Shown here: positions 9,335 to 37,768 of the stretch, one piece after another
Position numbering within the stretch: position 1 is the stretch's first letter
How the letters are laid out: each line of letters opens with the position of its first letter
Sequence record: NZ_CP067423.1
DNA: 64,000 nucleotides
Strand: one strand, 5' to 3'
Source: a plasmid
Notes under the pieces: generated by a model
What the model saw: the letters and a program-made list of their open reading frames with translations, nothing else
Told to the model about the DNA's origin: nothing
Database searches by the model: none
Program-made: the position numbers and the translations under genes

Positions 9335-9937
9335 ATGATCGATGCCGAACTGATCCAGCAATGTGCCGATCCCAGCCTCAAGGTCGAGATCGTGCAAAAA
9401 TTCATCGAGGAGGCCGGCGGTGCCGACCATCTGACCGTCACCGTTAGGGCAGGGGAGCGCATCATCCTTGTACCGAAACCATCGACCGAGTACGAGGCGA
9501 TGCAACTCATCCAGCAGAATTTGGGTCAGTCGATTGTCAGGGTAGGAGTGACTCAGTACCCGGCCGGCCTCGGCATTCAGGACATCTCCGAGCTCAGCCC
9601 GGACCTACTCGATTCCTGCAAGAACATTGGCATGGGCACCGCGCTCTTTGCCAAGGTCTATCGCATCGTCGCCAAATGGTATGGAGCACCCGCCCAGGAG
9701 GTCCTTGAGGAGGCGATATTCGCCTACAAGACCGGGTGGTTCGACGGAAAGCAGGTGTTCTATGAGTCCGACCCCGGCGAAACCGAGCTTGCCGAGCCGC
9801 AGCCAGCGGAGCAGGGCGCTCGGGTTGCGGCAGAGAGCACCGGCCCATCGGAGCCGCCTTTTTCGGAGGAAGATCCGAACAAGGCCGGTATCCGCATCGA
9901 TCTCTCCGGAATTAGCAGCAACAATAAAGAGCAATGA
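9335..9937 (+). CDS. traH: Conjugal transfer protein TraH
   Basis: 200 aa in the fourth position of the traAFBH operon. The acidic C-terminal tail is typical of TraH. Confidence 0.65.
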   Translation: MIDAELIQQCADPSLKVEIVQKFIEEAGGADHLTVTVRAGERIILVPKPSTEYEAMQLIQQNLGQSIVRVGVTQYPAGLGIQDISELSPDLLDSCKNIGMGTALFAKVYRIVAKWYGAPAQEVLEEAIFAYKTGWFDGKQVFYESDPGETELAEPQPAEQGARVAAESTGPSEPPFSEEDPNKAGIRIDLSGISSNNKEQ

Positions 9938-10320
9938 GTATCCACGTCGTCGTCACCATCATGCTTTGCGTACTGTCGTGCGAACCGGCCGAAATCCGTG
10001 TCTGGGACGGGGACTCCCTGCGGCTCGGGATGACGCAGGAGTCCGAGGCGATCCGCATCTTCAACATCGATGCGCCGGAGATTGAGGGGCAGTGTGCCTA
10101 TGAAAGCGATCTGGCGCAGCGTTCAAAACATCGACTGGCGGAGTTGTTGCAGGGTCAGCGCGTCGAGGTCCTGCGCCAAGGCACGGACCGCTATGGCCGC
10201 ACGCTTGCGAGCGTGAGCGTCAACGGCAGGGACGTCGGCGACATTCTCGTCAGTGAAGGCCTCGCCAGAATCTGGAGCGGCCGGCGCGAGCCGTGGTGTT
10301 TAGGCGATGCTGGCGGGTAG
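9934..10320 (+). CDS. Thermonuclease (staphylococcal nuclease/SNase-like) family protein
   Basis: Motifs of micrococcal-nuclease homologues are present: IRVWDGDSLRL, RIFNIDAPEI and DRYGRTLASVSVNGRDVGDILVSEGLAR. The start overlaps the traH stop (ATGA), so translation is probably coupled. Confidence 0.6.
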   Translation: MSIHVVVTIMLCVLSCEPAEIRVWDGDSLRLGMTQESEAIRIFNIDAPEIEGQCAYESDLAQRSKHRLAELLQGQRVEVLRQGTDRYGRTLASVSVNGRDVGDILVSEGLARIWSGRREPWCLGDAGG

Positions 10321-10404: not shown

Positions 10405-13400
10405 TCAGCGCCGATAGATATCCAAATCCGGAAATGTTGGACTGCCAGGGGTCCAGAACTCCACGCTATCGGCGTGCATCTCGTAGAATTCGCGGTCTAC
10501 GGTGATACGCACCGCATGCGGTAAAAATCCATCGACGAGGCGGTAATCCTTCTCGTCGAGATGAACAGCTTCTGTCCCGAGCGGCAGCAATATCGGCCTG
10601 TCCAAAACGGCACGGAGATTGGAAAGCGTTATGGCCGGATCAAGACGGACCGGCACCTCGAGGTCTTCATCCGCGAACTCATCGAGGTTGAGGGCAGAAT
10701 CGTCCCCTGCAGATATCGCATTTTCGAGCGCCTGAAGAGCATCATTGCGCTTGGCGTCAGGGGCGTTCGAGGTGGACAAGACCGATTCTTCGATGAGCCG
10801 TGGCAAGCGCGTGAGGATTGGTTGAAGCCCGCCTACAACCTTTTCGAAGATCGAAATGCGACTGCGCAGCGCGCGATAGACGTCGGCCTCGACCGTATCT
10901 TCGTAGTGCAGGTTGATGATCCGAATATCAGAAAACCGCTGACCGAGGCGATCAATGCGCCCGATCCGCTGTTCAACGCGCATCGGATTCCAAGGCATAT
11001 CGTAATTCACCAAAGCACCACAGAACTGGAAATTCAGACCTTCGGCAGCTGCGTCGGTGCACACCAGGACTTCGGAACGGCCTTCCTTGAAGCGCCGTTT
11101 GACATCGTCGCGCGTGATCAACCTCCAAGTGCCATCGGTGTTGCGCACTTCACCGCCGCGACCGGAAAAGCACATCACCGAGTTTCCGGCGCCGACAAGC
11201 AGGTCCCGAAGATAATCCATCGTGTCCGTGAACTGGGTGAACACCATCACCTGCGGATAGCCGCTGCCCTTGAGCTCGGCCAGAACCTTCGAAAGCTCGA
11301 TGGCCTTAGTGTCGGTCGGCAGCAGTGTGATATCAGCCACGATAGTTTCGATGGTCGCGATCTCTTCGAACGCGAGGGCGCGTCGCTCGTCCTCTGACAC
11401 AGTTTCGATATCTATTTCTTCGCCGGCCTCGACTTGGTCGGCGACGTCCTCATCGATCCTGGCTTCATCGGCTGCGGTGAGAAACCCTCCTACACCACCT
11501 TTTCGCTTCTCCATCGTCTGCCGAAGGGCATGGAAACTTGACGCAAGGCGCCGGCGATAGATCGTCATCACGAATCCCACGGCGTTGCGGGCATCAGGCG
11601 CCGCGGCATTGTATGTCTCGGAAATGTAGGTTTCGACCTGCTGGTAGAGGTCGCCTTCCTCTACCGACAGCGGAATGAAGCGGTCTTCGACTTGCCGCGT
11701 TGCGATGGCAGCCGACATCTTGCCGGCCTTGAAGTATTTGCGCAGCAATTCGCGTGTGTGGCGCGAAACGAGCGCGCCGACCGGTGTCGATCGCTTGATG
11801 ATCGCAATCGCCGTGCGGCGTTCTTCCGGCGAAAGCTGCCGGCGCGGTATCGAAACCAGATCGCGCAGCGCTTGGAGGACTTTCCGGGTCTTCAGTCCGC
11901 TCAGCCGGGTCTGCCGTTCCGCATCCGCCCGCGAGACTTCTCCAAAATGGGCCTCGTTCGCCCGGAAGAGCGCCGAAAGCCAATCGAGGCTTTCGTTGGT
12001 TACAGGTTCCTTCGCGACTTCTGAGAAGAAGCGGACGAAGGCATCCGGTGTCCATTCAGGCGGCAGGCCTAACAGGTCGAGCAAATCCCAGAGTTCCGTG
12101 GCGTGGACCTGCAAGGGTGTTGCGGTAAGGAGGATTAGCCCGTCCGTTCGACGCCGCAACGACCGCATCAATTGGAGAAGCCGGTTCGGGCCTTTGGCTT
12201 GCGGCGTTCCAGCGCCCTTCGTTCGGGCGTGATGCGCTTCATCAAGGACAACGAGATCCCACGGATCGGCCGCTTCCAGAATTTCGCGTTGTCGATCCTG
12301 GCGCCTCGCGAGATGGCTCGACATGATCACGAATGGCTCACGATGCCACGCCTCGCGAGACACCGGCTTTTCGAAATCATGATCCCGCGCCGGCGACCGA
12401 TACCACGTCAATTTCTGGCCATCGTAGATCGGCCAATTCAGGTTGAACTTTTCGCGTAGTTCGATCTGCCATTGCTTGCAGACGTTCTTGGGCGCGAGGA
12501 CCAGCGCGCGCTTGATCCTGCCCGCCAACCAAGCTTGGCGAAGCAGCAGCCCGGCCTGAACCGTCTTCCCGAGACCAACTTCATCGGCAATCAGAAGCTT
12601 CGGCGGCCAGTTGTCATAGAGGCGATGATAGGCGCGGATTTGATGCGGCCAAGGCACGACCGCGGAAGTCGCTTCGCCCACGCGATCGCCGCCGATGGCT
12701 TGAACGGCAGCGTTGGCGATCTTTTCCCAAACGGCCTGGCGTTCTTCATCGATCGAAACACTTGGCCCCGGCCCAATAGTGATTGGCTCATCATCATGGG
12801 CCGGTCCTTGAGTCGGTCTGGGTGCCGATGGTCCCGTCGATTGGTCGTCGTGTTCAGCGAGGCGCTTAGGCAATTTTTCGGGGTCGGGCAGGAAGGTCAG
12901 CAGTTGCTCGCGCAGCGCCGTTGGCACATCAAGCGTGATCGCCCGGCGGGCGCGGTCAGCCCAGAGCTTCGCGAAGCTTGCTTCTTCTTCGTCAACGCGC
13001 GGGCCGTCATTCCACGACGTGAAGGCGTTGAAGCTTTCCCAGTTCCGCGTCCAACCGAATTCGGTTTCGTTGATGCTACCGTTGAAGGCCATCCGATCGC
13101 CGGTCTTGTCCTCGATGATGCCGGTCTTTTCGTGAAAGATGCTGTCGTCGCGGATCGGCCGGCGGTCGAGGTCGCAGGGCACGGCAAGCTTCACATCGAG
13201 AAAGCTGTTGGCCACCATCCAGGCGACAAGTTCGAGGGCATCGATCGTCCGCGGATCGGCCGTCAAGATCGGCATCTTGATTAGCGTCCGTTCAACGGCG
13301 TCGCGGAGAGATTCGCCGCGCTCGATGGCCGCAACCTCTTCTTCGCCGAGAGTGCAGCCGACGATCAGGCGCATCCGCCCATTATTGACGATTAGCCCTT

Positions 13401-13563
13401 CGACGCCCCGGGCAGCAAGCGCCAAGGCGCGTGCCGAGAAATAGCCTGTAAGGCGATCGTATCGAGTGGCCGAGCGCAACGCAGGCACATAGAATAGCCG
13501 GACGAGGTCACCATCGTCCGGTGTATATTTGAGGCGCCATGCGGTGTCGCGCAGAAGCGTCAA
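10405..13563 (-). CDS. PLD-family nuclease domain fused to SNF2-family helicase (defence-island helicase)
   Basis: The N-terminus has an HxK(x)4D motif (HEKTGIIEDKTGDRMAFNGS), i.e. a PLD nuclease. SNF2 helicase motifs follow: motif I (LLIADEVGLGKTVQAG), motif II (VVLDEAHHARTK) and helicase C motifs (TDAAAEGLNFQ, RIGRIDRLGQR). It is the last gene of the cassette and overlaps the preceding gene by 4 nt. Confidence 0.8.
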   Translation of the reverse strand: MTLLRDTAWRLKYTPDDGDLVRLFYVPALRSATRYDRLTGYFSARALALAARGVEGLIVNNGRMRLIVGCTLGEEEVAAIERGESLRDAVERTLIKMPILTADPRTIDALELVAWMVANSFLDVKLAVPCDLDRRPIRDDSIFHEKTGIIEDKTGDRMAFNGSINETEFGWTRNWESFNAFTSWNDGPRVDEEEASFAKLWADRARRAITLDVPTALREQLLTFLPDPEKLPKRLAEHDDQSTGPSAPRPTQGPAHDDEPITIGPGPSVSIDEERQAVWEKIANAAVQAIGGDRVGEATSAVVPWPHQIRAYHRLYDNWPPKLLIADEVGLGKTVQAGLLLRQAWLAGRIKRALVLAPKNVCKQWQIELREKFNLNWPIYDGQKLTWYRSPARDHDFEKPVSREAWHREPFVIMSSHLARRQDRQREILEAADPWDLVVLDEAHHARTKGAGTPQAKGPNRLLQLMRSLRRRTDGLILLTATPLQVHATELWDLLDLLGLPPEWTPDAFVRFFSEVAKEPVTNESLDWLSALFRANEAHFGEVSRADAERQTRLSGLKTRKVLQALRDLVSIPRRQLSPEERRTAIAIIKRSTPVGALVSRHTRELLRKYFKAGKMSAAIATRQVEDRFIPLSVEEGDLYQQVETYISETYNAAAPDARNAVGFVMTIYRRRLASSFHALRQTMEKRKGGVGGFLTAADEARIDEDVADQVEAGEEIDIETVSEDERRALAFEEIATIETIVADITLLPTDTKAIELSKVLAELKGSGYPQVMVFTQFTDTMDYLRDLLVGAGNSVMCFSGRGGEVRNTDGTWRLITRDDVKRRFKEGRSEVLVCTDAAAEGLNFQFCGALVNYDMPWNPMRVEQRIGRIDRLGQRFSDIRIINLHYEDTVEADVYRALRSRISIFEKVVGGLQPILTRLPRLIEESVLSTSNAPDAKRNDALQALENAISAGDDSALNLDEFADEDLEVPVRLDPAITLSNLRAVLDRPILLPLGTEAVHLDEKDYRLVDGFLPHAVRITVDREFYEMHADSVEFWTPGSPTFPDLDIYRR

Positions 13564-16505
13564 GCAGCCTCCTCTGTGAAGAGCGATAGCTGTTGGGGCT
13601 CATCAACCTTGTCGGAGAAGGCGAGACGACGCAGCTTCTCAAGGGCGTCGAAATCATCGGCCGCCGATTTTGCATCGCCGGTGGCAACATCGAAGCCGAC
13701 AAAGTTACGCGAGGGTGGCAGAACTTCCAGCACGGCTTCGAGAGCGGCCAGAAATTGGGAATCGCCATCGATCCCCGCATCCTTGAGAAGATCGAAAGCC
13801 GCTTCTAGGGTTCGCGTCCTGCCACGATGGGCGGCATGGTGGATCGCGTCGATCATGGCGCGCGATCCGTCGGCGGGGCCGAGTGCATTTTTGGCAGCGC
13901 GCGTGGCGCTATCCCAGAGCTTGATATCCGAGCCCTTCTTTTCGCAGACCTTGCCAATCAGTTGGCCATCGAGATCGGCGCCCACTGCACGGGCGAGCCG
14001 CAGGCCTTCATCGTAGCTAAACACCGGCGCCTTAAACGCGTCCCAGGCCAGCACAAACCACGAGGTGGTCGCATCGAGATCGCCACGTCCCTTGGTATGG
14101 GTGAGCTGGTTCAACCGCCACGTCTTGACCTCGCGACGTGCGGCATCGAGCGCGTCTTCCGGCGTCACCGCGTAGGGATCGAACTCTTCCTCGAATAGTT
14201 CGGCCTGCTTGCGGCGTCTCTTCGCCAGCGGTTCGGGTCGCGGTGTCCCGCGCTTCAGCGGCCAATGGCGCGAGAATTCTTCCAGCGCGGGCCCGAAGGA
14301 CGCGAGATAGAGATCGACGCCGGTAATCCCGGCCTTCTGGAATTCTTCAACCCGGGTGCGGACGGCCTTGGCCACCAGCGGCTCGACATCTTCCCAATAG
14401 GTCGTCTCGTCGCCCTGATCTGCCGGGCGCGGGCGGCAGACGAGGAAGATTGTGGAGTTGGCGGCGGCCTTGTCCTTGATATGGAGAGAGCCTTCGGCCT
14501 CGGTATTCACCGGCCAGGAGGCGGTGATAATGAAGCCCGCTTCGATCAATCCCTTCGTCAACGCATCCCACGCACTTGTGTCCTTGTGCGTGAACATCAC
14601 GGTCATGATGCCGTTCGGTTTCAGCACTCGCCGGCTTTCCGCGAAGATCGCGGCCATCTTTTCCTGATAGTCGCGGTTCGCGAGCGCGTCGGCGCCCTTC
14701 TGGCCTTTGAAATGGGCCTTGTTGGCGACTGCTTCGGATTGCTTGTCGGTAAGGCGTCTTGTGAAAAGCTCGGGCGCAACTAGCCCCGCGGTGCGCTTCA
14801 GCCACACATAGAAGAAGTCGGACAGCTCCGCATACATAACGTTCGCGCCATAGGGTGGGTCCATCACGACAGCATCGACTGAGCCGTCGGCAATGTGATC
14901 AAGAGAAGAGCCGGACTTTGACGAGATTACAACTTCGGCCGGCGCTACCTTTTCTCCTCCAAAGAGTGGTCCATCTTTGGACCCTGTAGGTGTCGATAGC
15001 TCTACAAGCTCCTTGATACATTTCGCGGTCTGTTCGATAGCCCAATCATAACCAACACTATCCGTGGTAATGACCATTTCGGCATACGACCATTTGAACG
15101 CAAAATCATGGCGATCAAAGGTGTTGACCATGATTTCGCGATTGCCGTGCCACCGTGTCATTCGAGAGTTGTAGTCGCGGAGTTTATCGAGGCTGAAGCT
15201 GAGATAGATGTAGGCGGCCCGGCGAACATCAGTCAGACGACCGGCGAGTCTGTCTTCCTCAACCATGTCACGAAAAATCTCGGATGCCAGTCCATGACCA
15301 AGAAGCTGGCGTGGCGAGAACATATCCCGCCAAAGCGGCATACCATACTGACGTGGTCGATCGTCATTTGTGTCCGAAGGGAATGCTTCGCTTGGGATGA
15401 CATCAAGCGCCTCCCATTCTGGAAGCTTCCTATCTATTTGGGCGGCAATATCCGCCTCGATGCTGTCTTCCGTGCGAGGAGCTCGATAACCCCTTTCCCA
15501 TCTCGGCTTGCCAAGCTTCCCAGACTTGAGCCTAGTTTCGATGCGCCGCTTGAATACGACGGTGAACAGTTGATCGCCCATTCCTTCGGCTTGTGCCTGG
15601 CGCTTGACCTCGTCGCCATCGATAACGCGGGCGCAATCTGGAAAGGGACAAGTGGCGTCGCCATCGGAAACGGTTCCAGCCGAATGCTCTGAAATGTTAG
15701 TCACGATCTCGAATGAGCAGAAGCGACCAGTGGTCCCTGGTCCAATGCCCAAATGGGGCTTCAATCGAACCCCAAGGCCGGCCCCATTCAAGCGCCAGTT
15801 CGGAGAGAGCGGTATCGTTCCCGCGCAGTACGGGCAGGAGATCGTGCGTGCCCAAATATAATTGGTCGCAACGCAGTTCTTCTCCGGCTCAGGCGGGTAT
15901 GCCGAACGAAGGAGGACCTCGCGTCGCGCGACGAATTTCTTTGAGATTTCATCAAACTCGTCCAGAAGTTTCACGCCGAAACGCTGCGGAGTTTCTACTG
16001 TCGCCTTCAGAATCGTAGCTGCTACTGGGTTGAGATCGTTGGCATACGACTTAAAGCCCATCCGACTGCTCTCGAACGGAATACTTCCGCCGCCCGCCGT
16101 CGGATCGAGGACAGATATGTTGCTTCCAATCTGCCTTCGGATTGCAGCCATTTCCGATGGAGAAGGTGAATATGAGAAAGCGCGCTTGTAAGTGTAGGCC
16201 TCGCCTTCAAATCGTTCGCCAATCCGCTTTGCCCGGTCGATCCGTCGGCGCGACGCCATTGGATCACCGTGAATGCCCAGAACATGGAGAAAGGCATCGT
16301 GGTCGGCATTGGCTGGCAACAACGAAGCCAACACGGCAGCCCGGGACGCAACCAAAGGGCGCCTCGCCCACCAGACGTGCAAGCGGTTGGGAGCAGGGAA
16401 CGGCGTCATTGGCGTGCGTTCCCGAAGACTCTCAATGCCTATTTCAGCGATCGGCAACCAACGTTCAATCAGCCGCACATCCGACATACGCTCATCTTCC
16501 ATCAT
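13560..16505 (-). CDS. DUF1156-type N6-adenine DNA methyltransferase
   Basis: The DUF1156 N-terminal signature (LIERWLPIAEIGIESLRER...PPNRLHVWWARRPL) is present. An AdoMet-binding motif (VLDPTAGGGSIPFES) and the catalytic motif IV (DPPY: VVMDPPYGANVMYAELSDFF) follow. 981 aa. Confidence 0.8.
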   Translation of the reverse strand: MMEDERMSDVRLIERWLPIAEIGIESLRERTPMTPFPAPNRLHVWWARRPLVASRAAVLASLLPANADHDAFLHVLGIHGDPMASRRRIDRAKRIGERFEGEAYTYKRAFSYSPSPSEMAAIRRQIGSNISVLDPTAGGGSIPFESSRMGFKSYANDLNPVAATILKATVETPQRFGVKLLDEFDEISKKFVARREVLLRSAYPPEPEKNCVATNYIWARTISCPYCAGTIPLSPNWRLNGAGLGVRLKPHLGIGPGTTGRFCSFEIVTNISEHSAGTVSDGDATCPFPDCARVIDGDEVKRQAQAEGMGDQLFTVVFKRRIETRLKSGKLGKPRWERGYRAPRTEDSIEADIAAQIDRKLPEWEALDVIPSEAFPSDTNDDRPRQYGMPLWRDMFSPRQLLGHGLASEIFRDMVEEDRLAGRLTDVRRAAYIYLSFSLDKLRDYNSRMTRWHGNREIMVNTFDRHDFAFKWSYAEMVITTDSVGYDWAIEQTAKCIKELVELSTPTGSKDGPLFGGEKVAPAEVVISSKSGSSLDHIADGSVDAVVMDPPYGANVMYAELSDFFYVWLKRTAGLVAPELFTRRLTDKQSEAVANKAHFKGQKGADALANRDYQEKMAAIFAESRRVLKPNGIMTVMFTHKDTSAWDALTKGLIEAGFIITASWPVNTEAEGSLHIKDKAAANSTIFLVCRPRPADQGDETTYWEDVEPLVAKAVRTRVEEFQKAGITGVDLYLASFGPALEEFSRHWPLKRGTPRPEPLAKRRRKQAELFEEEFDPYAVTPEDALDAARREVKTWRLNQLTHTKGRGDLDATTSWFVLAWDAFKAPVFSYDEGLRLARAVGADLDGQLIGKVCEKKGSDIKLWDSATRAAKNALGPADGSRAMIDAIHHAAHRGRTRTLEAAFDLLKDAGIDGDSQFLAALEAVLEVLPPSRNFVGFDVATGDAKSAADDFDALEKLRRLAFSDKVDEPQQLSLFTEEAA

Positions 16506-16981
16506 TTCGCTGGGTCAGTGAGCAGGATGCGGAGCGCAGTCAGCACGCGGCGCGGATTCTTGCGGTGAACCGACATGCCGAGCCAATAGCCAGCTTCTTC
16601 CTTGCCCATTACCTCGATGCCCTCGGCGACGAGGCGCATGTTGTCGCGGTTACGCATTGGGGCGAGCGTCCGGAACAGCAGCGCGAGGCGCAGCGCGGTT
16701 TCTTCCGACAAAGCCGATCCCATGCCCTCGATCGGCAGGAGATCAAGGCGGATGCCGCTTTCCTTCAGGCGCTTGAGTACCCGGTGTTCAGCCAGTTCGA
16801 GATTACGTCCGCGAAGGCCCGCAAGGCGGATCGGAGCGGTGATCTGTGGAGTCACAATCGATGGCAGTTGCCAGACTTCAACCTCGGTATCGCCAGGGCC
16901 ATGGCGACGGGCGCGCAGTTCGTAAACGGGCTGGGTTTTCGACACCATTATGAATTCGTCCTTGCGGCGCGGCACATTCAT
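16502..16981 (-). CDS. Small DUF3780-like protein of the DUF499/DUF1156 cassette
   Basis: 159 aa, translationally coupled on both sides (4-nt overlaps) between the DUF499 and DUF1156 genes. This is the position occupied by DUF3780 proteins in such cassettes. The family assignment is by position and size only. Confidence 0.45.
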   Translation of the reverse strand: MNVPRRKDEFIMVSKTQPVYELRARRHGPGDTEVEVWQLPSIVTPQITAPIRLAGLRGRNLELAEHRVLKRLKESGIRLDLLPIEGMGSALSEETALRLALLFRTLAPMRNRDNMRLVAEGIEVMGKEEAGYWLGMSVHRKNPRRVLTALRILLTDPAK

Positions 16982-19900
16982 GACTTCACCTCCGCCGTTG
17001 CTTCGACATACGCAGCCGCGCTCGCAAAGCGCGTCAGCTTTTCGATGAATTTGTCCGCGGCATCCCCATCCAGCGCGAGCCCGTTTTCGAAATCAAACGA
17101 AATACTGGTTTGCAGATCGGTCTCCTTCGCCGCCCTGAACTGAGGTTCGAGGTAGTCCTTCATCGTCGACGCATCTTGCGCCACGCCGCTGAATTCGAAC
17201 TGCATCTCGCTGTCTTGCGTTGTGATGAAGCTGCCCGTGAGCTTCACCGACCGTTTTGTTCCAGCGACGGTGTTTGCGATCGGGATCAGCTTGAAGGCGT
17301 CACCATATTCGAACAGGCGGATCACCACGCGATCTACCTTTTCGAGCTTCGCGGTCTTGGCTTGTTCGATCACCTTCCGTAGTGCTTCCTTCAAGACGCC
17401 CTCGGCGGTGAACACTTTGGCATTTGCGACGGCAGCTCCATCCGGGCCACCTTGTGGTCGTTCGCCGAAGCCGACCGCCGAGCCTTCGCCCGGTGCTCCG
17501 CCGATCGGCGGGAGCGGCTCGCCCGAAATCGAAGCGCCAGTTCCGGCCGATGCGGGTTGGGCCGCCGACGCGGGCGCCGGCCGAGGCCACACGCCCTTGG
17601 TCTTGGCGAAGTCCATCGTGAAGATCGTCGTTTCTTCATCGATGTTGATCGACGGCATCGGATCGCCTTGCCCGGCCAGGAGATCGCCGCGCTTGTAGAC
17701 ATAGACGCCTTCCTCGATGCCCTTTCGGACCGCCTTGCGGAACACGTCATCCGACAGGAGGATCGAGAGTGAGGGGTCGCGGCGGAATTCGTCGCGAAGA
17801 TCGCGCGTCGTCATCTGCCCTTTCTTCAAGGGTGTGCGGTCGCGGATGTAGGAGGGGGAATCGGGCGAGTCGGAAGCGTCTCGAACCTTGTTCTGACTTT
17901 GCAACTGGCGAACGACCTGAAGCTGGCCTGATCCTGGGCGCTCGGAGGCATTCTGAATATCGATGACCGAATGCGCTAGCTGCACCGAGCCCGTGCCGCT
18001 CAGCGCATTGCGCGAGGGGTAGAGGATGTGGCGATAGCACTGCTGGATCGCTATAGCCGCCTCTGTCTCGGACTTCTTCTCGAGTTCGAAGACCTTAGCT
18101 TGCTGGTGCTCGGCAAGTTCCTTGACGCGCTCGGGCCGCTTAAGCTCCTGAAGGGCCAGGCGGCGCACGATCGCGCGCTTCATCTCGTTCACTTTGGTTT
18201 CGTCCGCGACGACAAAAACCAGATTGTTCCGCAGGGACCGCAGGCCGTTGCCGTCGGCGCCCTTGCGCTCAAACATGCGTCCCACGATCTCGGGCATCTC
18301 GCGAAGATCGGCGCCGATTTCCAGCGCGTCGTGAGAAAGCAGCACAAGCCGCGGCTTGCCGTCCGATACGTCGTCCGGGACATCCCATGGCCCGCCGGGG
18401 AAAGGCACGAGGTCGAAGGATTGGCCGCCGAAGATCGCCTTTGCCCTGTCCACAAGCTGGGTGCGCGCCTCACCGGGATCGATGTTCTTCTCCTCCCGAC
18501 CGATGACCTGCGTTAGGTTGGCTTCGGCGTTGAAGCGCAGCGGTGCGTTCGGCCGATCATCGAGATAGGCGGATTCCGCGCGAAATTTCGTCCTCGCATC
18601 GTCGATGAAGGAAAGGTCCGCTGCAGGGCTGAGGATCGAATAGCGCAAGTGGTCGGCTGCGACGCCCTTAAGGTCGTTGTTGAACGCGAGGGTGTGGATG
18701 AAGATTGTGCGGGCGACGTAGGTGCCATAAGGCAGCAGGCCCTTGAAGTTTTTCGCGTCCAGCTCTTGGGCCAAAGCCAGTTTCTCGGGCGGCCCAGCAA
18801 TGTCATTGAGAATCGCCGGCACAAAGGCGCCTTGCTGCAGCCGCGTCGTGAATTCCCGGCGAATGACATCCGATCCCAGATCGACGTGATGCAGGTGGAT
18901 CGCGGACGCATCGGAAGGACGGCTTGCCCAGACGGTCGCAACGGTCTTTGCCAGAATGCGCAGCATTCCACGCACGCGTTGAAAGCCGCCGAGCGTGGCC
19001 GTTTTCCCGGTGAGCGTATCCAGAACGTCCGGGTGAAAGGGATAGGTCTGCGCGAATTCTGCGCTGGTGGTCGAGCGCCTGGCTTCTTCCGATAAAATGT
19101 CGCGATGGATGCTCCAAAGTTCGCGATAACCGTTGATCACTTCCGTCGCGCGGGAATCGTCAATCGACGCAAACAAGCGGCGTCGGATGACCTTTGCGGT
19201 TTCATCATCCCGTGTCGGATTGAGGTTGGTCGCCTTCCGGCCGGAGACGCTTTCGAGTTCCGACATGGCGCTGGCGAGGAATTCGTTCTCGTCGGCGAAG
19301 GCGTCCACGCCCTTGCCGTCGGATCGAACCGCAAGGGTATACACGATTGCCGCGTGCGGGGTGCTCTCGATCGCGGTCAGCAGCGCCTTGAGGAAGGCGG
19401 TCAGTTGATCGCGCCCACCCATGCCTTGAACTCGCCGAAGGTACTCGCCCAGCTCATCGAGAACGACGAGCACTGGATCGGAACCGAATAGTTCCTTTAT
19501 GGTGTCGGCACCCGGAGCAATTCGCTGCTCGTCTGATCGGCGCACGATCTCGTATCCAGCCTTCCCAGCCAGCTGGTAGGCGATCTCGCCCCAAGGCGTG
19601 TGGGCGCGGATTCCCTCGCCCATCGGCCGACCGTTCGCCGGATCGGCATTCTCGCCATCGAAGGCTGCAACGCGGACGGCCTGGGTTGGCACGAGGGTTG
19701 GATCGAGGAATTCCGCGGTATTCGAGACACCCTGCATCCCTGCTGCTGCGTGTACAAGGGCAATCAGGCCGTGCGTCTTACCGCCGCCGAACGAGGTATC
19801 GAGGCGGAAAACAGCTGACACGCTTTCCCCGCGGCCAGACAGTCGGCCACAGACGTTGACAAGAAGCTCTTTCAGCCCCTCGGTGGGATAAGTGTTCGTG

Positions 19901-20046
19901 AAGAACGTTGGAGCGTCGGTGTAGTCGCGCGAGGCGCGACCGGTCAGGACATTCGCGAGATTGGCCGCATAGTCGCTGTCAGCAATTGTTCCCTTTTCCA
20001 CGTCCTCGCGAGGCCTGCAAAGCTCAAATACATTTGGAATTGTCAT
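16978..20046 (-). CDS. DUF499-family ATPase (large P-loop NTPase)
   Basis: The N-terminus VFELCRPREDVEKGTIADSDYAANLANVL is typical of DUF499. A Walker A motif (DTSFGGGKTHGLIAL) and a Walker B-like motif (VLVVLDELGEY) are present. 1022 aa; first gene of the four-gene cassette. Confidence 0.75.
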   Translation of the reverse strand: MTIPNVFELCRPREDVEKGTIADSDYAANLANVLTGRASRDYTDAPTFFTNTYPTEGLKELLVNVCGRLSGRGESVSAVFRLDTSFGGGKTHGLIALVHAAAGMQGVSNTAEFLDPTLVPTQAVRVAAFDGENADPANGRPMGEGIRAHTPWGEIAYQLAGKAGYEIVRRSDEQRIAPGADTIKELFGSDPVLVVLDELGEYLRRVQGMGGRDQLTAFLKALLTAIESTPHAAIVYTLAVRSDGKGVDAFADENEFLASAMSELESVSGRKATNLNPTRDDETAKVIRRRLFASIDDSRATEVINGYRELWSIHRDILSEEARRSTTSAEFAQTYPFHPDVLDTLTGKTATLGGFQRVRGMLRILAKTVATVWASRPSDASAIHLHHVDLGSDVIRREFTTRLQQGAFVPAILNDIAGPPEKLALAQELDAKNFKGLLPYGTYVARTIFIHTLAFNNDLKGVAADHLRYSILSPAADLSFIDDARTKFRAESAYLDDRPNAPLRFNAEANLTQVIGREEKNIDPGEARTQLVDRAKAIFGGQSFDLVPFPGGPWDVPDDVSDGKPRLVLLSHDALEIGADLREMPEIVGRMFERKGADGNGLRSLRNNLVFVVADETKVNEMKRAIVRRLALQELKRPERVKELAEHQQAKVFELEKKSETEAAIAIQQCYRHILYPSRNALSGTGSVQLAHSVIDIQNASERPGSGQLQVVRQLQSQNKVRDASDSPDSPSYIRDRTPLKKGQMTTRDLRDEFRRDPSLSILLSDDVFRKAVRKGIEEGVYVYKRGDLLAGQGDPMPSINIDEETTIFTMDFAKTKGVWPRPAPASAAQPASAGTGASISGEPLPPIGGAPGEGSAVGFGERPQGGPDGAAVANAKVFTAEGVLKEALRKVIEQAKTAKLEKVDRVVIRLFEYGDAFKLIPIANTVAGTKRSVKLTGSFITTQDSEMQFEFSGVAQDASTMKDYLEPQFRAAKETDLQTSISFDFENGLALDGDAADKFIEKLTRFASAAAYVEATAEVKS

Positions 20047-20089: not shown

Positions 20090-20314
20090 TCACCCTCCGC
20101 GAAGCTCGTTCTTCTTGAGCCAAGTCTCGATCGCTTCATTTGCGATCGCCGATGCCGTCGATTCGCGATCAACAGCAGCTTTTTTCAGATCCTTGATCAC
20201 GTCGCTGTCCAGATGAAGCAGCATTTGTCGCTTCTCTTTGATGATGGGCTTGCTAGTACGTGCCTTTATGCGACCCGTCATCCCGTTCACCGCGCTATGA
20301 TAGGAACCTATCAC
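20090..20314 (-). CDS. Ribbon-helix-helix (CopG/BrnA-antitoxin-like) protein, orphan
   Basis: KRQMLLHLDSDVIKDLKKAAVDRESTASAIANEAIETWL is an RHH beta-strand plus two helices. No cognate toxin gene is adjacent. It ends 44 bp upstream of the DUF499 gene. Confidence 0.5.
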   Translation of the reverse strand: MIGSYHSAVNGMTGRIKARTSKPIIKEKRQMLLHLDSDVIKDLKKAAVDRESTASAIANEAIETWLKKNELRGG

Positions 20315-20429
20315 CTCAGTCTAGAGTGACGGCCTATCTAAAACAATTGTCGAATTGCTCGGGACAGCCTTGCCAATCCGTTTTCACGCTGTGTTCCACC
20401 GAAATTCCCAGCAGCATGCCTGGTGATGA

Positions 20430-21254
20430 TCAGGCGCCGTGTCGAGGATGGCCGTTCACCGCGCAACTTACCGACACAAAGAATCCTCTCAATTGGGGCT
20501 TCTGTGCCGGGCGAGCCGTCATAAGTGTGGGCTGTTTGCCGTCGATCAGTAGGGCATGGTCGCCGGAGCGGAAGCGCAGCGCGCCGTTCAGGTTGGCAAG
20601 GCCGATGAATAGCGGCCGAAAACCGTGGCCGCGTTCCGCCTGGTGTTCGTACCGCGAGATGCCGTCGGTGAGCGTCAAGCGCAGCGCTTCGCCGTGATCA
20701 TTGAGCCTAGCATAGGCCGCGTTGCTGCGCAGGCTATTCAGAACTCCGATGCCGCGATCGGATGATATGAACTCAAATTTTCCCTTTGAGGCGCGGAACG
20801 CGACGATGCCGCTCTGCGGCTCTTGCGCATGCTCGTAGATGTTGCTGTGAAGCTCGCCCATGGCGGCAGTGAGCTGGGCGGCAATGGCCTTGGGAAATCC
20901 TTCCGCCGTTGCAGCTTGCTGGGCGGCTAGACCGAAGGTCGTCCATGCGTTGATGTCGTGCGGCGTGGCGGTGCTTAGGAAGCCCGCGCGCCGCGTTTGC
21001 GGGCAGACCCACTCTCGCGTGCCGTGCCTGATGGCGTCCAGCATCGGACCAAAAAGATTTGTGGTCAGCCAGAGGGCAACGTGCGGTGCGGGAAGTAAGC
21101 CGTCGTCGGCAAGGTTCGAGAGTTCGAAGAGCGGGCCGATCTCGGACGCGGTGAGCGCGGGAATGGCGGCCTCGTTCAAGCGGCCCCGCGCGGCCGCGAA
21201 GGCCAGCCCGTCGAGCATCCTGAAATCCAATATCGCGGGCTCGGTTTCCGTCAT
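20430..21254 (-). CDS. GHKL-family ATPase (HATPase_c; RsbW/SpoIIAB-like serine kinase/anti-sigma-type)
   Basis: The N-box ELHSNIYEHA (ExxxNxxxHA) and the G1 box SSDRGIGV (DxGxG) are present. 274 aa; last gene of a four-gene operon with 4-nt overlaps. Confidence 0.6.
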   Translation of the reverse strand: MTETEPAILDFRMLDGLAFAAARGRLNEAAIPALTASEIGPLFELSNLADDGLLPAPHVALWLTTNLFGPMLDAIRHGTREWVCPQTRRAGFLSTATPHDINAWTTFGLAAQQAATAEGFPKAIAAQLTAAMGELHSNIYEHAQEPQSGIVAFRASKGKFEFISSDRGIGVLNSLRSNAAYARLNDHGEALRLTLTDGISRYEHQAERGHGFRPLFIGLANLNGALRFRSGDHALLIDGKQPTLMTARPAQKPQLRGFFVSVSCAVNGHPRHGA

Positions 21255-22423
21255 CCGGCCATCGGCGCCGATTCAGCCGAACGTGAGGAGGCGATCAGAT
21301 CGCCAATCCACGCGTCGGTCGCCTGCCAGTTCGCTTCAAGCAGATGGTCGACATGGGCCCCCTGTGCTGTCGGCGCGCCTCGCCAGCCAAGGGCAGCGTT
21401 GCCCTTGGGATAGGCCTGCTGGCGCATCATCGTCTTCATGAACACTGACGTGTCGAGAACGGTGATCCCCGAAAATGCGCGGGCAATCACCGGCAGGACG
21501 TCGGTGCCTCCGCGTACGATGATGTGCAGCGGGCGGCCGACGGCCCGGGCCAATCCTGCCAGCCAAGCCGCGTGCTGCTCGCGCCGCCCGGACCAGCCGG
21601 TGCCCGTGGTGAACTCATAGGCGATATGGGTGACCTCAGGCCGGGCGGCGAGGAAGGCGATCCAGTGGGCAAAGTCTGCTTCAGTGCGCCCGTTGACATG
21701 GAGCGCGGCCGGCAGGCCCTCGCGCAAGAACTCTTCATGGACGATCGCGATGCGCTTCATCGCGTGCAAGTCGTCCCACCGCGGCCGGTCGATGAACAGG
21801 CTGTAGTTCGGCGTCGTCACCATGCCGACGCCGGCGGCGATGAGGGCTTGGATGATCGGCCGGCGGCCGGCTTCGCCGAGCCCCCACCAGCGCTCGAGCG
21901 GGCGGTCGATGTCAGTACCGGTCAGCATCACCGACGCCTGATGGCCAATGCCGAATGCCTCGCCGAGCGCGTCGCGGCTCACAAAGCGCGGTAGGCCGGT
22001 ACGCCGGTCGAACATACGGTAAAGCGGAAGCGCTACGGTCGCGGCAGTGGGCGGCATGCTGCGCGCGGTGGGGTGATAGATGACTGGGACAAGGCGGGGC
22101 AGGCCAACCGCATTGAGCAAAGGGGCGCGTGGCACGCTATAGAGGTTGAAGCCGCCGATTTCACGGTAGCGATCGGCGAAGTCAGGATGGTTGCGGCAGA
22201 CGCGGTCGCAACCTTCCGGATTGCCGCAGCAGAACTGCAGGCAGTCCATGAAGGGCGTGTTCAGCCGCAGCCCGCCGCAAATCTCCTTCTCCGGGCAGGT
22301 GGCGCAGCCGAGGGCTGCGCTCGCCACTTCGGGATCGTGCCAGAGGCGGCGCTCGCGACGCGGATTGCGCCGATGGCGGGGTGCCTGCGGCTTGACTTTA
22401 GCGGGATCGGAACGGGTCAGCAT
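21251..22423 (-). CDS. Cys-rich protein of unknown function (N-terminal Cys cluster, possible metal-binding)
   Basis: 390 aa. The N-terminus reads CATCPEKEICGG...DCLQFCCGNPEGCDRVC, with 9 Cys in about 45 residues. The remainder has no motif I can assign. The gene is overlap-coupled to both neighbours. Confidence 0.5.
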   Translation of the reverse strand: MLTRSDPAKVKPQAPRHRRNPRRERRLWHDPEVASAALGCATCPEKEICGGLRLNTPFMDCLQFCCGNPEGCDRVCRNHPDFADRYREIGGFNLYSVPRAPLLNAVGLPRLVPVIYHPTARSMPPTAATVALPLYRMFDRRTGLPRFVSRDALGEAFGIGHQASVMLTGTDIDRPLERWWGLGEAGRRPIIQALIAAGVGMVTTPNYSLFIDRPRWDDLHAMKRIAIVHEEFLREGLPAALHVNGRTEADFAHWIAFLAARPEVTHIAYEFTTGTGWSGRREQHAAWLAGLARAVGRPLHIIVRGGTDVLPVIARAFSGITVLDTSVFMKTMMRQQAYPKGNAALGWRGAPTAQGAHVDHLLEANWQATDAWIGDLIASSRSAESAPMAG

Positions 22424-22764
22424 AGTGAGATCTCCGCGACCCCTGCGATGGGATGAACATCCAGCACCGTGCCCTTGGCTATGCCGCAGGAGGCGGCCAC
22501 GGCCAGTACGAGTTCCGGCGCGGGATTGGTGAAGCGCGCGACATCGCTCATGCCTCGTCGGGCGATCAGCGTCCCGTTCTTGTTTTCGACGGTAAGCTGG
22601 TCCCCGGTGCTGAGCCTGGCGTTGCCGATGATGTCGGCTTCCGCCGTCCTTGCGGCGCTATCGGGGACGCGTGTGAACAGGTCGGCCGTCGCGAGCTTTA
22701 CCCGTGCGCGGTCCCACGCCTTCTTGAAGCTCGGCGCCGCCTTTTCGATGAATTCAGCCCCCAT
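22417..22764 (-). CDS. Hypothetical 115-aa protein (operon member)
   Basis: Intact ORF, translationally coupled between the STAS/wHTH gene and the Cys-rich gene. No recognisable motif. Confidence 0.4.
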   Translation of the reverse strand: MGAEFIEKAAPSFKKAWDRARVKLATADLFTRVPDSAARTAEADIIGNARLSTGDQLTVENKNGTLIARRGMSDVARFTNPAPELVLAVAASCGIAKGTVLDVHPIAGVAEISLC

Positions 22765-22769
22765 GGTCT

Positions 22770-23339
22770 CTACACTCCTTCAAACAGCGGCCGATAGCGC
22801 TTGGCGCGGCCCTGGCTCGTTTCGATGACGAGGCCAAGAGATGCGAGGGAAGCCAGCCGGTTATTCCAAGCCGTCGTGTGTTTTACCCCCTCGCTCTTGC
22901 CGTACTCGCGCATCAATGCGCCGGCGTCAGTCTCGCCGTGCTCGTGAACAAGGTCGAAAGTGAGCCTTTGCTTCGGATCAAGTTCACCGAGCGGGGCGGC
23001 CATTGTTACTGCGTCCGCCTCATCCAGCGCGCACAACATCAATACATCTCCGCGGGGCATCAGCAACTCCAGCAGCTCTTCACGCACTGTATCATTGGCA
23101 TTGGCGACCACCGGATAGAATTTCGAGCGTCGCCCCCTGACAATATCGCGGAAGGCAAGAACGCTCTCGCGCAGAAAGCTAGCCGTCGCGACCTCGATGC
23201 CGGTGAAATCGAGAAAGACCGGCTCCGGGTTTGCTGGTTCGGCGGCCGACGTATTCAAAAGCTCGTTCAGCGCCGACCTGCCGTTCAGCGCCCCGGCGAG
23301 GACGTCGCTGCCACCAATGGCCAGCATGTCGATCTTCAT
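22770..23339 (-). CDS. STAS-like (DUF4325-type) domain + C-terminal winged-HTH protein
   Basis: The N-terminal region (MKIDMLAIGGSDV...PVFLDFTGIEVATASFLRE) is consistent with a STAS-like/anti-sigma-antagonist fold of the kind found beside HATPase_c proteins. The C-terminus (HTTAWNNRLASLASLGLVIETSQGRAKRYRP) is a winged helix. The start is ambiguous: ATG at 23339, or upstream at 23390. Confidence 0.5.
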   Translation of the reverse strand: MKIDMLAIGGSDVLAGALNGRSALNELLNTSAAEPANPEPVFLDFTGIEVATASFLRESVLAFRDIVRGRRSKFYPVVANANDTVREELLELLMPRGDVLMLCALDEADAVTMAAPLGELDPKQRLTFDLVHEHGETDAGALMREYGKSEGVKHTTAWNNRLASLASLGLVIETSQGRAKRYRPLFEGV

Positions 23340-23649
23340 AGAATCACGTTCCTCACGTTGTTCACGTGAGATAGATAGTGAGTGCTGCATTCGGAGTCAA
23401 TGGTCCGGTGGAATGCTGCCTACCCGCGTGTTTTTGGGGGCAAGGTGTGAGCAGAAATTGCTATGGTCGCATCACTCGAGGATCGTCCGCCGCGACGACG
23501 AAGGCAATTTCAGGCGGCGACAGAGAAACCAAGTCAGGAACGGTTATTCGGCGAAGCAATCGCGGTGGACGTCGAGATTTATGACCGGAACGGGCGGCGA
23601 AAGGTTCATAGGTCGACGCCTAAAGGCACTTTGACAACTTGCTGCGTCG

Positions 23650-35027: not shown

Positions 35028-35103
35028 GGGGATCGACAGTCGTCGCCGTGATAGACAGGGGGGAGTGCCGAGGGGCCGTTGCCGCATTTATGGCTGAATT
35101 GCG

Positions 35104-35865
35104 ATGCAACGCGAAATTGCGACTACCCGAATTGAGGACAAAAACACCCGGAGAGGATCGTTGCCGAGCAAAGCCTTCGACCAGTTGCGAGACGCACTAG
35201 AAACGGCCCATGGGATGGCGCCTGTCAAAGCCGCGGTGAAGGAGTTCGCCGGCCAATTGGGGTTTGACTGGTTCGCCTATCTCTCGGTTTGTGGGCCGGA
35301 GATCGACACGTTTTCGACGTACCCGCGCGCATGGCAAGGCCACTATATCAACAAGAAATACGCGAGCATCGATCCCGTCGTGCAGGAAGCCCGCCGTTCT
35401 GAACGCTGCTTTGCGTGGTCCGAACGCGACATTGCACGGGCATTATCGCCGGATCAGGTGCGCTTCCTCGGAGAAGCCGGGGATCATGGTATCGCATCGG
35501 GGATATCTGTGCCCGTGTCGGCCGGGTTCGGCCGGACTGTGTTATTCACGCTTGCGTCGTCGAACCGGTGTGACAATTGCCTGGTAGAATGCCCCTTCCT
35601 TGCCGCTTCGATTGCATCGCACGTGGATGTCTATGCGCGGCGCTGGATGCTCGAGCCAATGCCTGCTGTCACCGTCAAGTTAAGCCCTAGAGAGAGGCTC
35701 TGCCTGAGCTGGATGGCAAAAGGCAAGCGCATGTCCGAAATCGCGCAAATCGTCGGGACGAAAGTCCGGACGGTCGAGTATCACCTGCAAAATGCTCGGC
35801 GGAAGCTCGATGCCACCAACGTCACCCACGCCGTCGCGCTTGCAGTGCGTCAACAGTTGATCTGA
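35104..35865 (+). CDS. LuxR-family autoinducer-binding transcriptional regulator (TraR-like)
   Basis: An N-terminal autoinducer-binding domain (GFDWFAYLSV...YINKKYASIDPVVQEARRS) and a C-terminal LuxR HTH (LSPRERLCLSWMAKGKRMSEIAQIVGTKVRTVEYHLQNARRKL) are present. The start codon is uncertain. Confidence 0.8.
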   Translation: MQREIATTRIEDKNTRRGSLPSKAFDQLRDALETAHGMAPVKAAVKEFAGQLGFDWFAYLSVCGPEIDTFSTYPRAWQGHYINKKYASIDPVVQEARRSERCFAWSERDIARALSPDQVRFLGEAGDHGIASGISVPVSAGFGRTVLFTLASSNRCDNCLVECPFLAASIASHVDVYARRWMLEPMPAVTVKLSPRERLCLSWMAKGKRMSEIAQIVGTKVRTVEYHLQNARRKLDATNVTHAVALAVRQQLI

Positions 35866-36117
35866 TCCAGGCCGGTCGCGGGAGGGCCTTTCCGCCTCTA
35901 CTTCGTGTTGTGCTTGCCGGCGGCAAAAGAGTCATCCGCGATGGCGCCGTCGCCCCCTACCCTGCCCGGCTGTTTTGAGGCTTATTCGGCTTCGCGTCCT
36001 GATCGGCGGCCGATATCGGCAGGGAGATCGGCAACTAATATCGGCAATTGTGCTGACTTATTGCGTCCAATGCCTTACATTGCAATCCGTTGAGGCACCA
36101 TTGAGATCGGCAAAAGA

Positions 36118-37347: not shown

Positions 37348-37507
37348 GTGGAATTTCAGGAGTGACAACCGGAATGACTCCGGCCGTCCCCGCTCAGAGA
37401 GTAGAACACTGCCTTCGGTCAGCCGAATATCGACAATGCCGGTCCTATGCTGCTGTGCAAGCCCGTTGTAGCCGCGGCAACAATTGCCGTGATTATGGGC
37501 CCCTGGA

Positions 37508-37768
37508 CTAGAATGTGACCTTGGCAGTGACGGGCGTGTAGCCCCGTCCGACCCTACGGGCGAGCCAGGCCTCGAGCGCTTCGCCGGCTTCAGCGGCCGA
37601 CGCATAGAGGTCAAGGCGTTGTCGGCCGAGCGAGCCGATCCGCCCCCACGCGCGCATAAGCGCCGCATCACCGTACAGTGACGGTTCTATCGCGAGTACA
37701 TAAAACCGCGCAACGTTGCGAGCGCAATCGCGGCGTTGAAGGACAACTTGAAGCTTCGGCTCGACCAT
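37508..37768 (-). CDS. WGR domain protein
   Basis: 86 aa containing a WGRIGS motif. It is convergent with the Fic gene. Confidence 0.55.
   Translation of the reverse strand: MVEPKLQVVLQRRDCARNVARFYVLAIEPSLYGDAALMRAWGRIGSLGRQRLDLYASAAEAGEALEAWLARRVGRGYTPVTAKVTF

Follow-up and report, generated by a model that had tools for sequence, protein, structure and literature searches.

Four overlap-coupled genes at positions 10405-20046 of the 64,000-nucleotide stretch of plasmid DNA analysed here (sequence record NZ_CP067423.1; hereafter the window), together with a small regulatory gene upstream, probably form a functional five-gene defence operon of a restriction-modification (RM)-like kind, carried by a Ti-type repABC conjugative plasmid of Aminobacter and resembling MANTIS, the BREX-related (BR) type 2 system. 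By analogy with that system its targets would be phage and plasmid DNA, restricted according to methylation. The cassette departs from MANTIS in the small protein encoded between the ATPase and methyltransferase genes, which belongs to DUF7680 and not to DUF3780 (MtsB). We tentatively propose, rating the chance at slightly below even, that DUF7680 cassettes represent a distinct, unnamed subtype of the DUF499-centred BR systems, in which a small basic protein that is unrelated, or unrecognisably related, to MtsB took over the co-activation of an ATPase-loaded methyltransferase. These readings draw on what was seen directly here: the genes present and their order, catalytic motifs that are intact and conserved, linkage throughout the lineage, a mosaic methyltransferase, a conserved regulator with its putative operator, and cargo in relatives that resembles that of defence islands.

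Type 1 of the BR systems corresponds to the Hma system of PADLOC, whose helicase bears a C-terminal PD-(D/E)xK nuclease (PMC12839542, PMC11232893), while type 2 (Gao_RL or Gao_29) comprises a DUF499 protein, a standalone DUF3780 protein, a DUF1156 methyltransferase and an N-terminal HKD-Snf2 helicase, and type 3 contains PglZ and an inactive STAND protein (PMC12839542). A preprint of 24 September 2026 renamed type 2 (Gao_RL) MANTIS and described its mechanism in Pseudomonas aeruginosa using genetics, biochemistry and structures (bioRxiv 10.64898/2026.09.23.753747). In that system the methyltransferase MtsC hemimethylates an asymmetric 6-bp site; methylation requires MtsA, with ATP binding and hydrolysis, and the small MtsB, a dimer with a strongly positive surface; restriction requires all four proteins and both ATPases, with inverted site pairs restricted best; MtsD was shown structurally to be a SauUSI-like dimer with one PLD active site; and an optional Arc/CopG-like protein, MtsR, represses the system (bioRxiv 10.64898/2026.09.23.753747). 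For the canonical form, this work overtakes the statement in the original prediction for the window that no mechanistic characterisation was known.

Components of the cassette and its control region

The open reading frame (ORF) list and the RefSeq annotation agree on the four genes, whose junctions are 4-nt overlaps (ATGA, ATGA and TTGA) that point to translational coupling. Plasmid pMDW3 of Aminobacter sp. MDW-2 matches the window at 100% identity, as do plasmids from two further Aminobacter strains, and the cassette is flanked on this repABC, Ti-type conjugative plasmid by traG/traA/traF/traB/traH on one side and by the trb operon (trbI to trbB) on the other, the trb side of pMDW3 also holding a traI/traR-like quorum-sensing pair. 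The original prediction had described four overlap-coupled minus-strand genes between the tra and trb modules, with DUF499 and DUF1156 proteins, Walker A, DPPY, HxK PLD and DEAH motifs and a helicase C domain, and each of these points is borne out by the ORF list, RefSeq, the plasmid annotation, hidden Markov model (HMM) searches or Pfam. Its four genes are indeed intact, but it had missed the conserved upstream ribbon-helix-helix (RHH) gene and the putative operator described below.

The ATPase matches Pfam DUF499 (E 1e-38), and its top PADLOC match is HmaC (E 3.8e-97). Against NCBIfam DUF499_antiphage it scores E 5.5e-59 and 200 bits; as this is far short of the 1200-bit equivalog cut-off, the protein does not count as an equivalog of the canonical clade. 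Walker A (GGGKT, residues 87-91) and Walker B (LVVLDE, 193-198) are intact, with G88, G89, K90, D197 and E198 unchanged in 78 of 78 relatives; 77 of these also share the G at position 87, and all carry T (76) or S (2) at position 91. By these matches and motifs the protein is assigned to the MtsA-like DUF499 AAA+ ATPases of the ORC/Cdc6 clade.

The methyltransferase is recognized by Pfam DUF1156 (E 3.5e-16), weakly by N6_N4_Mtase, and in PADLOC by HmaB (E 1.4e-69, the top match), DUF1156_MTase (E 1.3e-44) and PglXI (E 1.3e-21). Motif I (PTAGGG, residues 135-140) is separated from the DPPY motif (549-552) by a long insert, and the order of motif I, recognition insert and motif IV is that of group alpha. 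A Cys4 zinc ribbon lies in the recognition insert (CPYC, 224-227; CPFPDC, 286-291). DPPY is retained in 66 of 67 relatives and the four cysteines in 69-70 of 71. In comparison with the methyltransferases of related loci, among them L006, L007, L010 and L012 (loci are designated by L numbers), 50-residue bins of residues 1-550, the part with DUF1156, motif I and the zinc-ribbon insert, show identities of only ~30-70%, whereas residues 551-981 are mostly 80-100% identical, with a sharp, recombination-like breakpoint at the DPPY motif. Leaving aside short low-complexity linkers and the extreme C-termini, the ATPase and helicase of the same loci mostly reach ~75-100% identity. On these alignments, the recognition half of the methyltransferase is exchanged between otherwise near-identical cassettes. 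Such a mosaic is the pattern expected if the methyltransferase alone reads the DNA for both modification and restriction, as the MANTIS experiments showed: MtsC sets restriction specificity too, and a swap of its target recognition domain alters that specificity (bioRxiv 10.64898/2026.09.23.753747, section 5). In the closest relatives (L009 and L011) the divergence of the methyltransferase is focused at residues ~100-200 and 351-400.

The last protein of the cassette, the predicted effector, contains SNF2-rel_dom (E 3.4e-18) and Helicase_C (E 1.4e-18) domains. In PADLOC its top match is BrxHI/BrxHII (E 6.3e-76), and PLD_Helicase (E 1.4e-69) and PbeA (E 3.2e-67) match over residues 4-448, while the NCBIfam models phospholipD_antiphage (E 4.4e-99, 333 bits) and DrmD (E 1.4e-80, 272 bits) match below their cut-offs of 1100 and 610, respectively. 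The nearest solved relative by sequence is RapA. The helicase motifs GLGKT (at 330), DEAH (441) and QRIGRIDR (865) are unchanged in all of the 56-60 relatives compared. The nuclease domain (~aa 1-230) holds the motifs HEKTGIIED (144-152) and GSIN (162-165), and its PLDc_2 match (E 1.4e-4) falls under the Pfam cut-off. The PLD assignment holds despite this weak score because the HKD residues are invariant, H144, K146, D152, G162, S163 and N165 being unchanged in 60 of 60 relatives. This assignment, and the functionality of all three enzymes, thus appear well supported by residue conservation. The PLD domain fills the N-terminus, so the effector would lack an N-terminal Tudor domain, and neither Pfam nor PADLOC gave evidence of a C-terminal restriction-endonuclease domain.

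Directly upstream of the ATPase gene is a small gene for a CopG/Arc-type RHH protein, of which the RefSeq version covers the last 44 codons only (window 20090-20224). Homologues occur directly upstream of the DUF499 gene in nine loci (L008, L010, L011, L013, L015, L017, L019, L020 and L022). The single sequence is sub-threshold in Pfam (Antitox_RHH, E 0.026), and a profile of 8 homologues matches PDB 9kkd_A, 'Ribbon-helix-helix protein, CopG family', at E 1.5e-7. Upstream of this gene, the pattern TTGnnn, 17 nt, TAGnnn stands in constant register in L008, L010, L011, L013 and L015, within sequence that has otherwise diverged; a sigma-70 consensus scan of the upstream region flagged no promoter, and the promoter-like site is thus proposed from conservation (phylogenetic footprinting) only. 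The perfect palindrome TGATAGGTTCCTATCA, with arms TGATAGG and CCTATCA around a central TT, begins 4 nt past the -10-like hexamer, and the RHH start codon follows 32 nt further on. L008, L010 and L011 have it unchanged at -32, and L013 and L015 with a single mismatch, between diverged flanks; in the more distant relatives L020 and L022 another palindrome, TAGCTATCTAGCTA, is found at -31. The region looks like an autoregulated promoter with a putative operator driving all genes of the operon, a counterpart of MtsR and of RM controller proteins.

DUF7680 and its lineage

The DUF499 ATPase, the DUF1156 methyltransferase, the HKD-Snf2 effector and the gene order that define type 2 are all present in the window; DUF3780/MtsB, which as a standalone protein is present in 98% of type 2 taxa (PMC12839542), is not. 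The 159-aa protein in its slot is strongly basic (isoelectric point (pI) 10.4) and matches Pfam DUF7680 at E 3.9e-44. It gave no DUF3780 match in a Pfam search at E up to 0.01, and no match among the PADLOC or NCBIfam profiles, whereas the DUF3780 protein of a canonical locus used as a control (L003, on an Acinetobacter plasmid, with the gene order DUF499, DUF3780, DUF1156, PLD-helicase) scored E 2.8e-74 for DUF3780. The label 'DUF3780-like' given to the protein in the original prediction fails both this HMM test and profile-profile comparison: hhalign of a DUF7680 profile of 31 sequences against a DUF3780 profile of 18 sequences returned a probability of 0.1%, and the relaxed local (mact 0.01) and global modes, with alignments of 29 and 17 sequences, also returned 0.1%. 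DUF7680 was not found in the literature searched and is unmentioned in PMC12839542 and bioRxiv 10.64898/2026.09.23.753747; nor were DUF7680, Aminobacter or the protein accessions found in the supplements of the BR paper, whose locus lists lie outside the searchable text.

The family is widespread. A representative-level search yielded 401 clusters at 50% identity, the 90% database contains 2443, and a pattern scan with one genome per species found a relative in at least 506 species, among them Alpha-, Beta- and Gammaproteobacteria, Acidobacteriota, Binatia, Verrucomicrobiota and others. Linkage was assessed in 80 related loci gathered with the closer DUF7680 alignment (A1), a sample that is biased towards relatives at least 58% identical. 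DUF499 lies immediately upstream of DUF7680 in 77 of the 80, and where at least 9.5 kb of downstream flank was available (62 loci) a methyltransferase follows on the same strand in 58 and a PLD domain in 50. DUF7680 also comes next after DUF499 on one cyanobacterial and one haloarchaeal plasmid. In BLAST comparisons the window ATPase scores ~200-235 bits against type 1 representatives and 103-127 bits against canonical type 2, and the methyltransferase ~180-215 and 129-152 bits, respectively; the helicase is nearer to the canonical PLD-helicase. Neighbour-joining trees, which are crude, with few sequences and midpoint rooting, placed the DUF7680 clade apart from types 1 and 2. By these comparisons the DUF7680 form appears to be a separate deep lineage. 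The cassette also moves as a unit, since by itself (window ~10430-20043) it is 90% identical in two Sinorhizobium medicae plasmids in which an IS3 element adjoins it and the other flanks are unrelated.

More than 1 kb of extra DNA separates the DUF7680 and methyltransferase genes in 34 of 73 related loci. The cargo sampled there includes complete, already known systems encoded on the same strand, Septu PtuA/PtuB (E 1.4e-112 and 7.5e-50) and NsnA/B/C (E 5e-110, 1.5e-101 and 2.4e-106), and also an uncharacterised triplet whose last member resembles Hsp70, a protein with a metallo-beta-lactamase fold and a STAND-TPR NTPase. The slot looks like a recurrent docking site for defence systems, as Septu also sits inside the Halomonas Hma locus (PMC11232893). 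Between the methyltransferase and helicase genes is another, smaller slot, occupied by DUF932, Uma2-nuclease or unknown genes. The window cassette is the compact form, with cargo in neither position. Two further observations concern individual loci. In a Pseudanabaena locus the DUF7680 gene is followed by an inserted MazF/RHH toxin-antitoxin pair, and two separate DUF499-DUF7680 loci are found on each of two metagenome-assembled chromosomes, a Vicinamibacterales and a Marinacidobacterales one (L047/L048 on OZ253576.1; L050/L056 on OZ240210.1), the ATPase and DUF7680 matches being near-identical within a pair and the downstream content different.

We read DUF7680, by analogy, as the functional counterpart of MtsB, and the authors of the MANTIS study themselves speculate that other proteins may fill the MtsB role in related systems (bioRxiv 10.64898/2026.09.23.753747). 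It could be argued, however, that the window simply holds an ordinary divergent MANTIS, in which DUF7680 is a true, highly diverged MtsB/DUF3780 homologue with the same fold and role and the architecture is not new. The AlphaFold2 model of DUF7680 (predicted local distance difference test (pLDDT) 86.7, predicted template modelling score (pTM) 0.80) runs strand-strand-strand-helix-strand and then four helices; the DUF3780 model has an equal order of elements at almost equal positions, and both agree with the published account of DUF3780, in which five helices back a four-stranded sheet. Because the DUF3780 model reaches only pLDDT 50, a low confidence that weakens the fold comparison, what is being compared is secondary-structure order. 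Against common descent stand the hhalign result, equal in its local, relaxed-local and global modes, and the separation of the two Pfam families, which show no cross-match. DUF7680 (~145-160 aa) is in addition ~40 residues shorter than DUF3780 (~195 aa) and is without the C-terminal region that in MtsB carries the dimer-interface residues (W159 to A190, bioRxiv 10.64898/2026.09.23.753747); and the partner ATPase and methyltransferase are no nearer to canonical MANTIS than to type 1 systems. Reader-domain fusions, which have been reported for DUF3780, were not seen among 10 longer DUF7680 homologues; a 3325-aa match among the longer homologues was rejected as a low-complexity artefact. A divergent but ordinary MANTIS is a serious possibility, to which we give somewhat less than an even chance, and as regards the origin of DUF7680 itself an unrelated replacement appears modestly more probable than an unrecognisably diverged homologue.

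Proposed working and alternatives

If the cassette is a MANTIS-like operon with DUF7680 as its co-activator, its working may be pictured as follows. The RHH protein, by analogy with the Pseudomonas system, would bind the promoter palindrome and limit expression. The DUF499 ATPase would load the monomeric DUF1156 methyltransferase onto a short recognition sequence, and DUF7680, taking the role of MtsB, would stimulate methyl transfer, so that host and plasmid DNA become marked with N6-methyladenine. On unmodified incoming DNA the complex of ATPase, DUF7680 and methyltransferase would license the dimeric PLD-Snf2 protein, which would translocate using ATP and cut with a single HKD active site shared by the dimer. 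Carried over from MANTIS by analogy are the hemimethylation of an asymmetric site, loading that depends on the ATPase, DUF7680 as co-activator and a preference for inverted site pairs. The scheme is supported by the conserved catalytic residues, the gene linkage, the mosaic methyltransferase and the defence-island behaviour of the lineage, with MANTIS proteins that are only about a quarter identical as its model.

It should be emphasized that several points weigh against this proposal. The lineage is known here from sequence alone, from which the recognition motif, hemimethylation and any site-orientation preference are not readable, and the window proteins are 22-26% identical to the canonical MANTIS proteins, far below the NCBIfam equivalog cut-offs. 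Because DUF7680 has no detectable sequence similarity to MtsB (hhalign probability 0.1%), the co-activator role is argued from position and analogy only. Even for canonical MANTIS, moreover, in vitro work has not reconstituted the nuclease activity of MtsD, and what MtsB does is unclear (bioRxiv 10.64898/2026.09.23.753747, discussion).

The location of the cassette, in a conjugative repABC backbone between tra and trb and also on other rhizobial plasmids, could suggest a role centred on the plasmid itself, either as a selfish, RM-like addiction module that kills cells after plasmid loss or as a barrier to competing plasmids. Canonical MANTIS does restrict plasmid transformation as well as phage (bioRxiv 10.64898/2026.09.23.753747), and a catalytically dead but targeting-competent methyltransferase is toxic through MtsD (bioRxiv 10.64898/2026.09.23.753747, section 6), which is the property that an addiction module needs. 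Most of the 80 related loci, however, are on long contigs or labelled chromosomes, and plasmid carriage is therefore not a feature of the lineage; the cargo embedded in relatives, furthermore, consists of classical anti-phage systems. We regard a plasmid-centred role as unlikely, and it would in any case be compatible with the MANTIS-like explanation, as the mechanism would be equal.

That the cassette is an Hma (BR type 1) system is very improbable. HmaC and HmaB are the top PADLOC matches of the ATPase and methyltransferase, and both proteins score higher against type 1 in BLAST. The effector, in contrast, has an N-terminal HKD domain where Hma has an N-terminal Tudor domain and a C-terminal PD-(D/E)xK/DUF3883 nuclease (PMC11232893, PMC12839542), the gene order is A-B-C-D and not the helicase-MTase-ATPase order (MTase, methyltransferase) of the type 1 locus examined, and a small fourth gene is present. 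Least credible of all is a decayed cassette whose methyltransferase is an orphan, its partners inactive and restriction absent; for this reading nothing specific speaks beyond the sub-threshold PLDc_2 score, and against it stand four full-length ORFs with coupled junctions, catalytic motifs that are intact and kept across the lineage, and a cassette that is 100% identical in three Aminobacter plasmids and 90% in the Sinorhizobium plasmids.

The finding is incremental and not surprising, the cassette being a recognisable member of a described superfamily. A large natural lineage with another small protein in the MtsB slot, one that can be folded with confidence (pLDDT 87), nevertheless offers a second, independent handle on the co-activator step. 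If the two co-activators are unrelated, comparing them could show what that step requires, and if the lineage is a distinct subtype, the DUF7680-methyltransferase slot would serve as a conserved place inside the operon where other defence systems dock. Current tools probably under-call the lineage: PADLOC and NCBIfam have no model of the small protein, and the scores of the three large ones are far under the NCBIfam equivalog cut-offs. On self-transmissible rhizobial plasmids the cassette could influence how sensitive soil and symbiotic bacteria are to phage and how plasmids move among them.

Neighbouring genes and comparison with known systems

Coordinates of the cassette genes and control sites in the window, and of insertion slots in related loci (positions within each locus)
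Feature	Sequence	Position	Strand	Details
DUF499 ATPase gene	window	16978-20046	minus	1022 aa; ORF list and identical RefSeq annotation
DUF7680 small-protein gene	window	16502-16981	minus	159 aa; ORF list and identical RefSeq annotation
DUF1156 methyltransferase gene	window	13560-16505	minus	981 aa; ORF list and identical RefSeq annotation
HKD/PLD-Snf2 effector gene	window	10405-13563	minus	1052 aa, TTG start; ORF list and identical RefSeq annotation
CopG/Arc-type RHH protein (MtsR-like) gene	window	20090-20281	minus	63 aa; 43 bases upstream of the ATPase start
Promoter-like site	window	20318-20346	minus	-35 TTGTTT (20346-20341), 17-nt spacer, -10 TAGACT (20323-20318)
Putative RHH operator	window	20298-20313		perfect palindrome TGATAGGTTCCTATCA
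DUF7680-methyltransferase cargo	L034	10515-12643		
DUF7680-methyltransferase cargo	L044	10435-13694		
DUF7680-methyltransferase cargo	L027	10444-14563		
DUF7680-methyltransferase cargo	L032	12097-13176		
DUF7680-methyltransferase cargo	L045	14629-17733		
Methyltransferase-helicase slot	L002	16283-16906		unknown 207-aa protein, cyanobacterial locus
Methyltransferase-helicase slot	L004	15796-16767		unknown 323-aa protein, haloarchaeal locus
Methyltransferase-helicase slot	L024, L054	11460-12461, 16001-16633		DUF932 (Microvirga and a related locus), Uma2-family nuclease (one metagenome-assembled genome)

Directly upstream of the cassette, between it and the trb genes, lies a second operon of four overlap-coupled minus-strand ORFs (20430-23390: 20430-21254, 21251-22423, 22417-22764 and 22770-23390), which falls outside the segment common to the Sinorhizobium plasmids. 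Its products are a 274-aa protein with a weak HATPase_c_2 match (histidine-kinase-like ATPase; E 1.3e-5), a 390-aa DUF4417 protein (RefSeq), a 115-aa protein and a DUF4325 protein that RefSeq describes as STAS-like and that Pfam matches weakly (E 0.0033). The PADLOC profiles matched none of the four; the operon could be another accessory or defence module. On the opposite side a 128-aa staphylococcal-nuclease-type thermonuclease (SNase, E 2.6e-14) is encoded on the plus strand at 9934-10320, after traH and convergent with the end of the helicase gene, and the Sinorhizobium plasmid likewise has a gene of the thermonuclease family (L086 1-158), ~8 kb away from its cassette. Farther away, window ~35100-50000 (record 42800-57300) contains a Fic-family protein, an RES/Xre (MbcA/ParS-type) toxin-antitoxin pair, repABC, a recombinase, an integrase and a Mu-transposase/TniB pair, and G+C falls to 0.54-0.55 at 44-48 kb, coinciding with genes of this stretch. 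PLSDB/MOB-suite types pMDW3 (record NZ_CP060200.1) as 'non-mobilizable' despite a TraA relaxase, a TraG coupling protein and a trb set of at least trbB to trbI, which is probably a typing miss rather than biology.

MANTIS is the closest named system. The window shares with it the order MtsR-MtsA-MtsB-MtsC-MtsD, with a small protein gene between those of the ATPase and methyltransferase and an optional Arc/CopG-type repressor upstream; the classes of enzyme, namely a DUF499 AAA+ protein, a group-alpha DUF1156 N6-methyltransferase with central insert and DPPY motif, and an N-terminal HKD/PLD-Snf2 fusion; and a methyltransferase recognition region that varies against conserved partners. It differs in its small protein, DUF7680 (~145-160 aa, pI 10.4) and not DUF3780 (~195 aa), and in the Cys4 zinc ribbon of the methyltransferase insert, which was not found in the canonical example examined (L003). 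The original prediction had matched the cassette to a candidate catalogued as an 'Hma'/DMS-type system, a view with which the PADLOC HmaC and HmaB matches agree, but the name that fits best is BR type 2, that is Gao_RL or MANTIS. Hma, of which HmaA has been tested in Halomonas meridiana (PMC8565338, PMC11232893), does have a homologous DUF499 ATPase and DUF1156 methyltransferase (the best PADLOC matches), a Snf2-family helicase-nuclease and defence genes (Septu ptuAB) inside the operon. Its helicase, however, has a PD-(D/E)xK nuclease at the C-terminus and a Tudor domain at the N-terminus, and in L088, the type 1 locus examined, the order is helicase-MTase-ATPase without a small gene between the ATPase and methyltransferase genes.

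A BREX/DISARM-like cassette, as originally suggested, proves apt in so far as the system appears methylation-based and is BREX-related, but it is neither BREX nor DISARM proper. BREX (types 1-6) was rejected, as PglZ and BrxA/B/L are missing from the cassette and BrxC matched only at E 5.6e-4. The ATPase, methyltransferase and Snf2 helicase are homologous to BrxC, PglXI and BrxHII of Type 3 BREX (BrxC, PglXI, BrxHII, PglZ, BrxA, BrxF) (PMC12839542), whereas the window cassette is without PglZ, BrxA and BrxB/BrxF, and its nuclease is an HKD domain fused to the helicase. With Class 1 DISARM (DrmA, DrmB, DrmC, DrmD, DrmMI) it has in common a DrmD-like Snf2 helicase, a PLD nuclease and an adenine methyltransferase; its PLD domain is fused, however, and not a separate DrmC, and a DUF499 ATPase is present. 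DISARM was likewise rejected, as the cassette has no DrmA, no DrmB or DUF1998 gene is in or beside it, and the DrmD-like score is below the NCBIfam cut-off. Finally, the effector resembles the PLD-helicase restriction enzymes of the SauUSI type, which depend on ATP, and the single-HKD nucleases BfiI/Nuc in having one HKD motif per chain, which implies a dimer with a single active site, and SauUSI also in the coupling of that nuclease to a superfamily 2 motor. SauUSI, in contrast, is autonomous and attacks modified DNA through its own recognition domain, whereas targeting by the window effector is predicted to proceed via the methyltransferase complex and to be directed at unmodified DNA.

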